Positions 16,247 to 20,454 of a stretch of DNA of 42,002 bases are shown one piece after another; positions within the stretch are counted from its first letter, which is position 1, and each line of letters opens with the position of its first letter. The position numbers and the translations under genes are program-made. The DNA comes from Pseudomonadota bacterium (lineage in GTDB: Bacteria; Pseudomonadota; Gammaproteobacteria; Eutrophobiales; Eutrophobiaceae), in the NCBI GenBank assembly GCA_022562175.1, contig JADFPU010000003.1, forward strand, positions 2,608 through 44,609, read 5' to 3'. The notes beneath the pieces were generated by a model. That model was not told the DNA's origin. It did not search any database and was given only the letters and a program-made list of their open reading frames with translations.

Positions 16247-17242
16247 TTACCGATAATCATTAAGCCCGACAAACGTGCCGCCATTACGATGGGTAAGTTC
16301 GCGCATTAATGTCGCAAAACGTTCCCCGGTAAATTGTAATTGGCGCGGGTTAGCAAACTGTACCGGAAAGCCGACCGCATGGATACGCACTCTTGGCTTG
16401 CCATTGGCATCCTTGGGGTTAATGCGTTCAACAGTATCGACAACTTCCTTGATAGAGCGTCCGGTGAATTCATCGCCGAACACATATAGACTTATCTTTT
16501 TGTCCACGCTGTAAAATGTACGGATTGCGCGGGTTATGCCTTCTACCGGGCTACTGTTACTGAATGGATTCCAGCTTCGCAGTCGATTGATAATGACCCT
16601 GCGCCGGCCCGGTGTGTCGGGCATCCATTTGCCCCGGTACCTGGAAAACATGTAATCACCCATATCGTTTAAAATCTGTATGCCTTTTACCCGCGGGTAG
16701 ACATCCAGGATTGTAATCAGCTGCTTGATCATTTTATTCCAGCTATATTGAAACATACTGCCGGAGGTATCAATGATAAATATAATGTATTCACTATCGA
16801 CCGGGATGCCACCTATGAAATCAGTTTTTTGTTCCTCCCGCTGGCTAAGCAGACGCTGCATCTCTTCGCTAAGTTGTTGCAATGCCAGTTCTAATTCGCC
16901 TTTGATGATAGTATTGACAGATGAGTCCTCTGCGAGTCCGGCATAGCGAACTTGTACATTGGCCAGTTCACGTTGCAGTTTGGCGACCTTTTCATCCCAG
17001 ATTGACAGTTGTTCATGTCTGGCATTTAAATCGCGATTAAGTACTTTTGCTTCGCCACGGATTTGAAACAGCTGGGCCTGCAATTGTTTGACAATACCAT
17101 CAAGCGGTTCTACAGATGCCTCAAGAACGGCTGGTACACCGGTCTTGGCTATCATCAGTAATAATATGATGGCGCCAAAGCCACAGGTAATCACATCAAG
17201 AAACGATAGACCGAAAGCCTCGTTTTCGCGACGCTTCTTCAT
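16247..17242 (-). CDS. Membrane-anchored vWA protein with ExbD/MotB-like N-terminal helix
   Basis: Basic N-terminus, TM segment SFLDVITCGFGAIILLLMI, coiled coil, and MIDAS-like DTSGS. Confidence 0.88.
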   Translation of the reverse strand: MKKRRENEAFGLSFLDVITCGFGAIILLLMIAKTGVPAVLEASVEPLDGIVKQLQAQLFQIRGEAKVLNRDLNARHEQLSIWDEKVAKLQRELANVQVRYAGLAEDSSVNTIIKGELELALQQLSEEMQRLLSQREEQKTDFIGGIPVDSEYIIFIIDTSGSMFQYSWNKMIKQLITILDVYPRVKGIQILNDMGDYMFSRYRGKWMPDTPGRRRVIINRLRSWNPFSNSSPVEGITRAIRTFYSVDKKISLYVFGDEFTGRSIKEVVDTVERINPKDANGKPRVRIHAVGFPVQFANPRQLQFTGERFATLMRELTHRNGGTFVGLNDYR

Positions 17243-18327
17243 GGCCAGTCTTCGGTGGGGCTCATGAATGCGCCCCGGGTCAACTGCGCTAACCGCCAGA
17301 AGGCAGAGGCGGCCATAGGGTCTCCTTCCATCGGCGACAATATGATATTGACCGGAACACCCTGGGGCAGTTTGTTGAGTGCCTGTTCAAAAAGTTGCAG
17401 GCGCTGTTTGCCGGTGACAGTTGTACCGCGGGGTGGCTTACGGCCCTGGGTAGGCAGGCCATCAGTGAGCAGGTATATATTGTCGGGTAGCGGCCGCAGC
17501 TTACTGGCATAGTCAAAGGCTGTTGCCAGATTGGTGCCCCCTGCCGGGATCACCTCTTTCAATTTTTCAATCGCGCCGTTTAATTGTTGCAAATCCTTAA
17601 CCTCTAGCCATTGTCCGCGGGTATTTGCCAATACGGATTTTGTCTCGGTATTGAAAGTATATATCTGATACTGACTATCGACAGGAAATCGTGTGCTGAT
17701 CCAGTCTACTGTCTGCAGGGCCTGTTGCCATTTGCGTGAATTAAGCCTTTGTTTGCCGGTCATATTACGGCGCCGGATAATGTTGACTATGGTTTTGTCC
17801 AACATGCTTGCCGACACATCCAGCAGGACTAATATTCTTTTGCCGCCGAGTTTCAAACCGGTCAGATATTCCCGGTTGCCTTCACCGACAAAGCTGCGTG
17901 TATCCTTGCCCGTGTTTTGGGTCTCTTTCTCAAGGCGTTGTTTCTGTGCCGCAAGTTTTTTCAGATCGGCCTTGAGTTTTTCCATATCTGCATCCTGGTT
18001 GCTATTAGCCAGCGCTTCCGTGTTACCGGCAACCTCCCTGATTTCGTCCATAATGCGGCGTGCCAGGCCCTTTGCGATCGCTGTCTGGTCATCAATATCG
18101 GAAACTGTATTGTGAAGTTTGGCGAGATTGTCTTTGCCCTGCAAAATCTCTTCTTCTAACAGACTGACTTCCGAGCTGAGATCAGGGGTCGTGTTTACTA
18201 CCGGCACATATGCATCAACATTGTGTTTGATGATCAGAAACAGCAATACCACAGCACCGAATCCACAGGACATGATGTCCAGAAAGGCCAGACTGAAGGC
18301 GGAAAATTCTCGTCGCCTACGGGCCAT
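17239..18327 (-). CDS. Membrane-anchored vWA protein with ExbD/MotB-like N-terminal helix
   Basis: MARRRR, TM segment AFLDIMSCGFGAVVLLFLII, coiled coil, and complete MIDAS (DVSAS, GGTNL, LLTDG). Confidence 0.9.
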   Translation of the reverse strand: MARRRREFSAFSLAFLDIMSCGFGAVVLLFLIIKHNVDAYVPVVNTTPDLSSEVSLLEEEILQGKDNLAKLHNTVSDIDDQTAIAKGLARRIMDEIREVAGNTEALANSNQDADMEKLKADLKKLAAQKQRLEKETQNTGKDTRSFVGEGNREYLTGLKLGGKRILVLLDVSASMLDKTIVNIIRRRNMTGKQRLNSRKWQQALQTVDWISTRFPVDSQYQIYTFNTETKSVLANTRGQWLEVKDLQQLNGAIEKLKEVIPAGGTNLATAFDYASKLRPLPDNIYLLTDGLPTQGRKPPRGTTVTGKQRLQLFEQALNKLPQGVPVNIILSPMEGDPMAASAFWRLAQLTRGAFMSPTEDWP

Positions 18328-19645
18328 TGTCATCCAGCACGCTTATAAATTTATACGTCACGCTTGAATCCCGAAAATTCATTGTATCGCCGGCTTGCAC
18401 AGGTGTTTTGCTGTTTAACAGCTGGCCATTTATAAAGGCCTGAAGTTGCCCTGCAGGTGTTATTACGGGTTGATGGTTATTCAGCATCACACAGCCAGCT
18501 GTTGTTTGACCCTTTGACATTTCGGGAGCACCGGTGCCAGACAGATATAAAGGCGTATTTCCTATCGGGTACGCCTGGTCTTCGTAGAGCACATGTGTGA
18601 CGGTGGTTTTTGCTGGCCTGGTGGAGGCCTCGCGTTGCCCGGGAATTTTTGTGGTGCAGGACACAGTCGGGTTTTTGCTGGCGGGAAGTGTGGTAATAAA
18701 GCTCAGGGAAGGGCCCGCTGTACGTATTTGTTGTGTGTATTGCTGACAGCCCAAAAACACAGCATCGACATCCAGTGTTTTATATTCAGGTAAAACGTCC
18801 GCCAGACAGGGTAAGGCGGCCATACGATCACTGAGTAGACAGCTTAAGGAAGGTGAAATGTGTTGAGCGATTCTCTGATAGATGGTCTGCAGTGCATGCG
18901 ACAAAACATGCCGATGTAGCTTTGCCTGGTGAAGGTTCTGCTTGAACTGGATCTCTAGTAAGACTTCCTTATTTTCATGCAGGGATTGCAGGCAACGCGG
19001 TAACTGATCATACAAAGCCTGTTCTGTTTCGGCATGATGCAAGGGGTCAAAACGTGATTGCTGGATGAATAGATCTGCGATCAAGTTGGCACAGGCTGTA
19101 TAGATATGACTGAGCCCTGTTTCATCGATTATTTCAACTGATTGTCGGCTGATTTCATCCTTCACCTGTAGTTGTGTGATGACAGTCTGGTGAAGATGTA
19201 TATCAATGTGCTGATAGTTACCGCTATCGATTATTGCTGCGGTACTCGCGATAGCGGAATCCACCAGACCTATGGCTGTAAACGGACTGGCTTCAGCCAT
19301 GCCAAGTAATAGCGATAATTGCTCCGTGGTGTAATTTCCAGGAACGGCAAATAGTATCTCTTCAGGTTTACCTGCCTGTTCATATAGGGAAAGTAAATGG
19401 GCAAACGCCAGGTCTGCATGATGTCTGTATTGTTTTGCAGGGTTCTGCAAGGCATCCTGGCTAAGTTTATTCCAGAATTGATTGTATGTTTGCCGTGGGT
19501 TCAGGTGCGCCAGTTTGAGTGCCTGTTCGCCAAGATAGAGTTTTTCATTTTTAATGACAGCATAGCCAGGGCTGCGCAAAACGATTTCCGTGCCCTTTGC
19601 TACACGGATCTCGCTGTCATTTAATTCGATTATGCATAATGACAT
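18317..19645 (-). CDS. Cytoplasmic protein with a degenerate Hsp70/actin-like fold and a C-terminal FHA-like domain
   Basis: SPGYAV..LGEQA..NP, FAVPGNY..EQ and LVDSAIA follow the motif order of the Hsp70 nucleotide-binding domain. FINGQLL..VQAGDTMNF resembles the end of an FHA domain. No signal peptide. Confidence 0.7.
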   Translation of the reverse strand: MSLCIIELNDSEIRVAKGTEIVLRSPGYAVIKNEKLYLGEQALKLAHLNPRQTYNQFWNKLSQDALQNPAKQYRHHADLAFAHLLSLYEQAGKPEEILFAVPGNYTTEQLSLLLGMAEASPFTAIGLVDSAIASTAAIIDSGNYQHIDIHLHQTVITQLQVKDEISRQSVEIIDETGLSHIYTACANLIADLFIQQSRFDPLHHAETEQALYDQLPRCLQSLHENKEVLLEIQFKQNLHQAKLHRHVLSHALQTIYQRIAQHISPSLSCLLSDRMAALPCLADVLPEYKTLDVDAVFLGCQQYTQQIRTAGPSLSFITTLPASKNPTVSCTTKIPGQREASTRPAKTTVTHVLYEDQAYPIGNTPLYLSGTGAPEMSKGQTTAGCVMLNNHQPVITPAGQLQAFINGQLLNSKTPVQAGDTMNFRDSSVTYKFISVLDDNGP

Positions 19646-19656
19646 TTTTTACTCCA

Positions 19657-20454
19657 TCAACGGACTTGCAAGTGCCGGATCAGGTTCACATCGCAATAAC
19701 TTTGTGCATCAAGTACCAGGCGATCCTGTAGTAATTGTAGTTGATGCATCAAAAACATGATGATGATACTGATTATCAGTGCGATAAAGGTTGAGTTAAA
19801 GGCAATGCCCAGACTGACAGTTACCCCGACAATATCGCCTTCTACTGCACGGTGGGCTTGCCCCAGCGCCTCGCCAATACCGCGCACCGTGCCAATAAAA
19901 CCTATCGAGGGAATGGCCCAGATGAGATAGCGGATCATGGATAGTTCCGAGTCGAGTCGATCCGATTCTGTGTCGCAGACATCTTTCACCGCAGTTGAGA
20001 CGTTCTGTATATTCTGTGTGGAACCAAAACGCTGCAAGGCGGTGAGTAATGCGCGGGGTAGAAGGTATTCCCTTTCCTCTTCCGGTAGTGCTTGAAGTGG
20101 CCGGGAATATTTGCGTGTATCTTCCGGCAGAATGCTGGTGCCCTCAGCTACCTCCAGCAGGGACTGTTTGAGTAATTTTCGCTCATGTAATGCAAACTTT
20201 CCCTTTAATCCAATAATAGCCATGGCCCAGAGTGCCAGGATAAAACAGGCTTCCTGTTCATAATCTTTCACCACAATGTATACGGAACGTTTTATTACAG
20301 CCGTCTCGCCAGCGTCTTGAATTGCCTGTCGCTCCTGCAGGATTATCTCGGCCTTGGGACGGATAATGGTAACGTATATAGCATGGACAAATATCAGCGC
20401 CAGGAATAAAGAAAACAGCTGATAGATAAAATCAGAGACAGGATTGTGTTTCAT
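19657..20454 (-). CDS. MotA/TolQ/ExbB proton channel family protein
   Basis: IPSIGFIGTVRGI and SLGIAFNSTFIAL helices; four hydrophobic segments. Confidence 0.92.
   Translation of the reverse strand: MKHNPVSDFIYQLFSLFLALIFVHAIYVTIIRPKAEIILQERQAIQDAGETAVIKRSVYIVVKDYEQEACFILALWAMAIIGLKGKFALHERKLLKQSLLEVAEGTSILPEDTRKYSRPLQALPEEEREYLLPRALLTALQRFGSTQNIQNVSTAVKDVCDTESDRLDSELSMIRYLIWAIPSIGFIGTVRGIGEALGQAHRAVEGDIVGVTVSLGIAFNSTFIALIISIIIMFLMHQLQLLQDRLVLDAQSYCDVNLIRHLQVR

Follow-up and report, generated by a model that had tools for sequence, protein, structure and literature searches.

Two vWA proteins with an invariant transmembrane aspartate as probable partner subunits of a TolQ-like channel protein in a conserved gene module of Pseudomonadota

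The window analysed here is a stretch of 42,002 nucleotides from contig JADFPU010000003.1 (positions 2,608 to 44,609) of the gammaproteobacterial assembly GCA_022562175.1, a genome which is 93% complete and from which 5575 open reading frames (ORFs) were used as search set. On the minus strand of the window, a run of eleven genes (14846-28123) contains the segment 16247-20454, which encodes a channel protein of the MotA/ExbB/TolQ family, a protein resembling the nucleotide-binding domain of Hsp70 (Hsp70-NBD) and a pair of proteins with a domain of von Willebrand factor A type (vWA), vWA-1 and vWA-2. It had been proposed in an initial annotation, made from the DNA letters, that the vWA pair supplies the partner subunits of the channel protein. 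According to the comparative data described below, the two vWA proteins are probably these partners, replacing ExbD, TolR or MotB. The features of this segment are as follows, with genes numbered in transcription order and TM standing for transmembrane.

19657 to 20454, minus strand: MotA/ExbB/TolQ-family channel protein, 265 amino acids (gene 6; PF01618)
18317 to 19645, minus strand: predicted cytoplasmic Hsp70-NBD/actin-like protein, 442 amino acids (gene 7; AlphaFold2 (AF2) and Foldseek)
17239 to 18333, minus strand: vWA-1, 364 amino acids (gene 8; Pfam VWA_2)
18229 to 18297, minus strand: proposed trans-pore helix of vWA-1, a TM segment at residues 13-35 (codon 18277-18279 for Asp19)
16247 to 17242, minus strand: vWA-2, 331 amino acids (gene 9; paralogue of vWA-1)
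17147 to 17215, minus strand: TM segment of vWA-2 at residues 10-32 (codon 17195-17197 for Asp16)

In both vWA proteins, a basic tail precedes one Asp-bearing TM helix, after which come a long helix and the vWA domain. The coordinates and motifs of the shared tail and Asp-bearing helix were verified; of the two Asp residues given as D16 and D17, D16 applies to vWA-2, while the Asp of vWA-1 is residue 19 from the first ATG and residue 17 from the second Met. This second Met is the start of most vWA-1 homologues (residues 3-364 of the query aligned to 1-362). The succession of a coiled coil and a vWA domain, as read initially, was found in both proteins. The AF2 model of vWA-2 contains a single helix at residues 47-133, and the profile of vWA-1 matches coiled-coil chains at approximately residues 45-140. 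The domain of vWA-1 passed Pfam VWA_2 (PF13519) with 37.8 bits against a cut-off of 27 (E 3.3e-9). vWA-2 lies below the Pfam VWA (PF00092) cut-off (16.3 vs 23.8); hhalign identifies it as a paralogue of vWA-1 over the full length (316 columns, probability 99.9, E 3e-31), and its model resembles solved structures of vWA and integrin I domains, with Foldseek E values from 1.7e-7 to 3e-5. The start of vWA-2 overlaps the stop of vWA-1 (ATGA), which fits a joint production of the two proteins.

The calling of gene starts affects the visibility of this N-terminus. In ten loci (within L140-L151), the vWA-1 frame extends 5' of the first ATG, GTG or TTG and there encodes the basic tail and the Asp motif; the true start of these ten genes is probably a rarer start codon. 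In a library clustered at 50% identity, several family members start at a Met within or past the helix.

The metal ion-dependent adhesion site (MIDAS) of vWA domains has the motif DxSxS...T...D. vWA-1 carries it in complete canonical form (D172, S174, S176, T267 and D291), and among 86 aligned sequences S174 and D291 are retained in 86, S176 in 82, D172 in 80 and T267 in 74. The initial reading of one canonical and one divergent MIDAS thus holds for vWA-1 and by half for vWA-2, in which DxSxS (D158, S160, S162) and the late D257 are retained in 39/39 sequences and the Thr loop is replaced. At the place of this loop stands SNSSPVEG, which is itself near-invariant (five columns counted, all 39/39 except Asn229 and Ser231 with 38/39). 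Both heads carry predicted MIDAS-type sites. The idea that the two sites have asymmetric roles is weakly grounded, because DxSxS and the late Asp occur in both proteins.

The conservation of the Asp in the TM helix, which had been suggested as a check, was followed from close relatives to another class, and the residue was invariant at every depth examined, down to about 30% identity. The close relatives are represented by 80 loci, the best 80 of 563 relatives (600 candidate stretches) obtained when the channel protein was used to scan named species genomes. They show 59-79% identity and belong to Microbulbifer, Porticoccus, Cellvibrionaceae, Halieaceae, Pseudohongiella and many metagenome-assembled genomes; many of them are cut by contig ends. 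All N-termini recovered from this set carry the Asp (76/76 for vWA-1 and 75/75 for vWA-2), and the same holds true for the aligned representatives (86/86 and 39/39). Among the 120 closest database homologues the helix was present in 116, each of them with the Asp (116/116). For 150 representatives with 31-65% identity, the helix was located by a pattern anchored on the Gly motif and independent of the Asp. It was found in 116, and 114 of these have the Asp; the remaining two helix-bearing sequences have N-termini that are unrelated or mis-called. The other 34 have no N-terminus, as they are fragments or their starts were called inside or after the helix. In a phylum-level sample of 301 genomes, 12 loci were read, eleven from another class and one from the window's own class, with approximately 30-40% identity to the window proteins. 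Here the Asp was present in 12/12 vWA-1 N-termini and in the 11/11 vWA-2 N-termini read, which belong to the other class, and six of the 11 vWA-2 helices showed AFA in place of GFG.

Not only the Asp, but also the helix surrounding it is unusually conserved. The identity to the window was 0.86 for the vWA-1 helix compared to 0.48 for the rest of the protein (77 sequences), and 0.80 compared to 0.58 for vWA-2 (73 sequences). The TM anchors of two neighbouring proteins of the run, one with PEGA repeats and an FGE-sulfatase fold and one with TPR repeats, served as controls and gave 0.25 and 0.36, which is no better than the remainder of those proteins. For the channel protein, the values were 0.89 for the helix with the GTV motif, 0.80 for that with the NST motif and 0.59 for the first TM helix. 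Based on these identity scores, no membrane segments of the cluster are more constrained than the vWA helices and the pore-lining helices of the channel.

The channel protein passes PF01618 with 50 bits against a cut-off of 22.9 and is proposed to be the pentameric A subunit. The two pore threonines, described initially as the Thr of GTV and NST, are T189 (19888-19890) and T222 (19789-19791), and T189, N220, S221 and T222 are retained in 33/33 aligned sequences. The Thr pair aligns with the Thr residues in TM2 and TM3 of solved TolQ. In loci of other families, ten of them from another class, both threonines were present in 11/11 complete channel ORFs.

The occurrence of the vWA genes follows that of the channel gene. 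Where a related locus extends 3.5 kb or more past the channel gene on its downstream side, both vWA genes were found (70/70), and 40 of the 80 loci keep all eleven genes in the same order and strand. Of 201 genomes sampled class-wide, one per family, 14 contained vWA-2 (one of them, G079, is flagged unpublished), and the channel was detected in 14/14 of these (E<=1e-39); in 13, the two genes share a contig and lie within about 3.5 kb. In one more genome of this sample, the channel gene lies at the end of a contig and vWA-2 was not detected, and four more gave weak channel matches only (E 1e-20 to 1e-22). At phylum level, 15 of the 301 genomes matched the vWA-1 profile, always with exactly two adjacent genes. 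The channel gene and both vWA genes are adjacent wherever contigs permit.

A conventional partner for this channel was searched for near the locus and elsewhere in the genomes. When all ORFs of 60 or more amino acids in the 80 related loci were searched with an ExbD model built from 31 sequences, 0 matches reached E<=10, and no ExbD-like ORF lies inside 10 kb in this set. The window's genome contains two ExbD-family genes, each directly adjoining its own ExbB/TolQ gene. In five carrier genomes (97-100% complete), all ExbD matches (22/22) and MotB_plug matches (4/4) have a channel gene distinct from the vWA-linked one at a distance of no more than about 0.7 kb. Since each of them adjoins a different channel gene, no spare ExbD or MotB is left in the six genomes, and a canonical ExbD encoded elsewhere and free to pair with this channel, the competing partner considered at the outset, was not found there.

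Altogether, the invariant Asp, the unusual conservation of the helices, the retained pore threonines, the co-occurrence of the genes and the lack of a spare ExbD or MotB lead to the assumption that the vWA pair probably provides the channel's partner subunits. Our confidence in any particular motor output is much less than in this partnership. Pore insertion, a 5:2 stoichiometry, a heterodimer of the vWA proteins, proton coupling, the MIDAS ligand and the cellular role are inferred.

Several results weigh against this assignment. A comparison of the vWA helix with ExbD, for which profiles were built from 51 unique ExbD/TolR and 141 unique vWA N-termini, revealed no significant homology. With the hidden Markov model (HMM) of the ExbD helix, the vWA proteins were outside the top 12 of the 5575 ORFs of the window's genome, and the reverse search of the same ORFs with the vWA helix likewise did not recover ExbD. 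The hhalign comparison of the vWA helix with ExbD/TolR had a probability of 0.3% and a P of 0.13, although the non-significant alignment places Asp on Asp, and Pfam matched nothing, neither ExbD (PF02472) nor MotB, in vWA residues 1-50. The periplasmic part comprises neither an ExbD fold nor an OmpA-like domain, but the long helix and the vWA fold. The channel itself is a distant family member: its nearest solved chain is TolQ with a marginal E of 0.037, and it fails the equivalog models for TolQ (TIGR02796, 23.3 vs 221) and ExbB (TIGR02805, 19.8 vs 135). Furthermore, the window's genome may miss a third ExbD, as it is 93% complete and its relatives have at least three. Experiments on any family member were not found in the literature searched. 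The idea of a vWA pair in place of ExbD, TolR or MotB is partly supported, with the comparative tests of conservation, co-occurrence and spare partners in its favour; since the homology searches were non-significant, only a likeness in layout is claimed between the vWA helix and that of ExbD/TolR.

The core idea is not new, as the same hypothesis is contained in PMC12204202 (Mol Biol Evol 2025, msaf138). The portion of that article available to us describes TM-tethered vWA proteins, mostly in heterologous pairs, that are tightly linked to a tolQ-like gene. These 'TPH-vWA' pairs have no tolR, exbD or motB nearby and carry a conserved Asp in a 'transpore helix', and in AlphaFold3 models of the pairs the two Asp residues lie within the Thr ring of a TolQ-like pentamer. 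An Idiomarina query was the starting point from which the family was discovered, and its members belong mainly to Proteobacteria and Verrucomicrobia; in this portion, the article offers a computational proposal, without experiment on these proteins. The locus described here agrees with it in the pairing, the tolQ-like neighbour, the lack of tolR, exbD and motB, the helix Asp, the Thr ring and the occurrence in Proteobacteria. It is placed as a new member of the proposed TPH-vWA family, an assignment made by these described features. A wider module or an Hsp70-NBD-like insert is not mentioned in the available text. Nothing else on vWA partners of TolQ-like channels was found in a literature search whose coverage left subscription journals outside, and the main texts of two recent articles on these motors (PMC12505986 and PMC12905483) contain 0 occurrences of 'vWA' or 'Willebrand'. 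The interpretation as a whole is well supported by comparative evidence; it is unproven and already in print as a hypothesis.

Besides the genes listed above, the run comprises the following members. Its flanks are unrelated metabolic genes on the opposite strand.

26795 to 28123, minus strand: secreted TPR protein with TonB_C, 442 amino acids (gene 1)
25789 to 26826, minus strand: low-complexity predicted lipoprotein, 345 amino acids (gene 2; from the translation)
24602 to 25792, minus strand: predicted lipoprotein, 396 amino acids (gene 3; core; lipobox-like LAVGC)
22903 to 24462, minus strand: TM-anchored TPR protein, 519 amino acids (gene 4; core; TPR families of Pfam)
20804 to 22894, minus strand: protein with TM anchor, five PEGA repeats and FGE-sulfatase fold, 696 amino acids (gene 5; core)
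15552 to 16223, minus strand: predicted lipoprotein, 223 amino acids (gene 10; lineage-specific; lipobox-like SSGC)
14846 to 15580, minus strand: predicted lipoprotein, 244 amino acids (gene 11; lineage-specific; lipobox-like IAGC)

For comparison, five loci were fetched from distant families and classes, and 20-kb stretches were examined for genes of the module. The order 396-residue lipoprotein, TM-TPR protein, TM-PEGA/FGE-fold protein, channel, vWA-1 and vWA-2 is kept in 5/5 of them. The Hsp70-NBD-like insert, both downstream lipoproteins and the TPR-TonB_C protein were found in 0/5 of these stretches. Based on this comparison, the core is a six-gene module to which the window's lineage adds five genes. 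The low-complexity lipoprotein was present in 60/80 related and 3/5 distant loci. Among the 80 related loci, the TPR-TonB_C protein occurs in 50, the 223-residue lipoprotein in 67 and the 244-residue lipoprotein in 66.

Within the core, the 696-residue protein matched PEGA in five stretches (E 7e-56) and FGE-sulfatase (E 2.4e-36) in Pfam. It adjoins the channel in 5/5 distant loci and was detected upstream in 9 of the 12 phylum-level loci with a channel ORF. The protein was also matched by the GldK/PorK model with an E of 1.4e-28, its 100 bits being far under the cut-off of 350, and by the PvdO and GldJ models. The lipoproteins of the run had no Pfam or NCBIfam match, and the 396-residue lipoprotein fell in the Atlas into unnamed and 'lipoprotein family' clusters only. 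The secreted TPR protein matched TPR_12 (E 4.3e-10) and TonB_C (PF03544, E 1.3e-8); as a signal peptide is present and a TM anchor is lacking, this protein is not a classical TonB.

The Hsp70-NBD-like protein, whose gene separates that of the channel from vWA-1, has no Pfam match and occurs in 77 of the 80 close loci. Its AF2 model (mean predicted local distance difference test score 93.2) combines an Hsp70-NBD/actin-like part (approximately residues 1-330) with a C-terminal beta domain (351-434) joined to it by a linker, and matches Hsp70 NBDs with Foldseek E 1e-16 to 1e-15 at 11-14% identity. Atlas clusters related to this protein carry FHA, and the C-terminal beta domain may be FHA-like.

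For a motor composed of the channel and the vWA pair, the following mode of action is proposed. The TolQ-like protein would make up the ring that conducts ions in a proton-driven motor of MotA/ExbB/TolQ type, and the N-terminal helix of each vWA protein would insert in this ring, with its Asp beside two rings of Thr. Binding and release of protons at the Asp could then drive a relative rotation at the ring. The two vWA heads would be carried across the periplasm by the long helices (about 85-100 residues), which are probably paired, and there the MIDAS sites might grip an acidic residue of an envelope partner. The likeliest such partners would be the co-conserved 396-residue lipoprotein, the TM-TPR protein and the TM-PEGA/FGE-fold protein. 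By this means, proton flow would be converted into force or anchoring at the envelope. Alternatively, the heads may anchor the unit and the ring may act on the TM-anchored TPR and PEGA/FGE-fold proteins; the output could thus be a rotating shaft, as in GldM, or an anchored stator, as in MotB.

More tentatively, the vWA/channel set could be only the motor of a larger uncharacterised and possibly envelope-spanning machine, whose module order is kept in Pseudomonadota of different families and classes; we regard this extension as possible and rather doubtful. In such a machine, a heterodimeric coiled-coil shaft with two MIDAS heads would couple proton flow to an assembly of FGE-fold, TPR and lipoprotein components, in parallel to GldLM driving the GldK ring or AglRQS driving Glt. 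The Hsp70-NBD/FHA-like protein might act as a lineage-specific cytoplasmic regulator or clutch, and the output would be a new proton-powered envelope function, for example adhesion, surface movement, or tethering or remodelling of the outer membrane.

The vWA proteins could also be peripheral transducers of the TonB/TolA kind which stay outside the ring, the ring then having no inserted partner or an unrecognised small one. A periplasm-spanning helix with a globular head does resemble the layout of TonB and TolA, the missing helix homology to ExbD is in line with it, and PMC12204202, in its available portion, reads a separate family of TM-tethered vWA proteins in this way. That family carries an SHLS/His motif and stands beside tolQ and tolR-like genes, whereas the helices described here have an invariant Asp and, judging from the column composition, no His inside, so the SHLS/His motif of the TonB/TolA type is absent. 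In addition, the vWA proteins are paired in 15/15 genomes, and a nearby tolR/exbD-like ORF gave 0 matches in the 80 loci. A role as transducers outside the ring is hence regarded as unlikely.

Equally improbable is the explanation that the vWA proteins are ordinary representatives of the BatA/BatB kind anchored in the inner membrane, whose TM helix serves the heterodimer or another contact within the cluster, and that the channel has something else as partner. BatB (3ibs, E 2.5e-6) does appear among the structures matched by the vWA-2 head, and the small-residue motif CGFGA could serve any helix-helix packing. A reduced 4:1:1 complex prediction (four copies of channel residues 60-265 with vWA-1 1-45 and vWA-2 1-42), whose stoichiometry is not native, gave no usable answer, with an ipSAE of 0.01 in two runs, and weighs in neither direction. 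On the other hand, a charged Asp kept universally in a TM helix would be costly unless functional, and ordinary TM anchors of the same cluster are poorly conserved. The vWA pair moreover tracks the channel gene exactly, and no free ExbD or MotB is available in the six genomes.

A role in anti-phage defence similar to that of Zorya is very improbable. In such a role, a MotAB-like unit, which in Zorya is 5:2 and long-tailed, would sense envelope perturbation, and an FHA-like cytoplasmic protein could signal. PADLOC gave only coiled-coil noise (E 7e-4 to 9e-3), the cluster contains no nuclease or other effector gene according to Pfam and NCBIfam, and its fixed order with envelope proteins across families and classes looks housekeeping-like and not like that of a variable defence island.

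Assuming the vWA pair to be the partner of the channel, the locus can be compared with known motors. With ExbB-ExbD and TolQ-TolR it shares the channel family, both pore threonines and the adjacency of the genes, and the vWA partners resemble ExbD/TolR in the basic tail, the one TM helix and the Asp a few residues from the cytoplasmic side. In contrast to these systems, there is no domain of ExbD fold, no detectable homology of the partner, and two different partners instead of a homodimer; a TM-anchored TonB or TolA is lacking in the cluster, whose TonB_C protein is secreted. MotA-MotB and PomA-PomB likewise have a partner with an Asp-bearing helix, and the periplasmic end of this partner is thought to anchor the unit. 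Here, however, vWA/MIDAS heads stand in place of the OmpA-like peptidoglycan-binding domain, no MotB_plug match was obtained and no flagellar genes lie nearby. GldL-GldM and PorL-PorM with GldK/PorK would have in common with the locus a long partner dimer spanning the periplasm and a protein of FGE-sulfatase fold in the outer complex. Whereas GldK is a ring lipoprotein, the FGE-fold protein of the locus is none and has a TM anchor and PEGA repeats, and no other genes of the type IX secretion system were seen; the architectural likeness to GldLM-GldK is an inference by analogy. The AglRQS-Glt system with CglB of Myxococcus, as far as the available portions of PMC9946355 and PMC11761067 and general background go, combines a TolQR-like motor and heteromeric partners with TPR and TonB_C-like proteins, lipoproteins and a vWA protein, which is similar to the locus. 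In Myxococcus, this vWA protein, CglB, is a lipoprotein of the outer membrane and not a motor partner, and AglQ and AglS are TolR-like, which distinguishes them from the vWA pair.

If the assignment is true, motors of the MotA/ExbB/TolQ kind accept a partner with a wholly different output domain, namely a metal-dependent adhesion head on a coiled-coil stalk instead of an ExbD fold or a peptidoglycan anchor. This would widen the range of envelope tasks that proton-driven 5:2 motors can serve. The family is large: vWA-1 matches 7023 or more clusters at 90% identity, a minimum since scoring covered the 8000 candidates with most words in common, and 312 representatives at 50% identity (E<=1e-30). 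Carriers include the culturable marine Microbulbifer and Halioxenophilus, and Exilibacterium is also named among them; since the family occurs in culturable marine bacteria, testing at the bench is feasible. Compared to the published hypothesis, our data add a confirmation in a new marine-sediment gammaproteobacterial lineage together with explicit negative controls. They also define the conserved module, which should hold the load of the motor and is most worth following up.

DNA of the segment 16247-20454 was found in sequencing runs listed in 20 rows (12 studies), for which marine sediment metagenome is the predominant label. Of the 20, 10 carry half or more of the sampled words, and the best-matching ones may represent the sample from which the window comes. 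RNA runs were not among these 20 rows.

A second orphan MotA/ExbB-like gene (PF01618, E 8e-11) was observed in the window's genome on contig C256 (L136, 2791-6202, minus strand), with neither ExbD nor MotB adjoining. It is followed by a 197-residue ORF with a basic tail and a TM helix containing an Asp, a 173-residue membrane ORF, and a 527-residue protein that has vWA (5e-10) and FHA (1e-20) domains as well as a TM segment. A cytoplasmic FHA theme also appears in this locus, as it may in the Hsp70-NBD-like protein. Weak orphan PF01618 matches, covering a similar part of the profile, were also observed in three of the five carrier genomes (G001, G091 and G052). At the end of the window, a 141-residue ORF on the plus strand (41235-41660) looks like the C-terminal part of what we take to be a group II intron reverse transcriptase/maturase.

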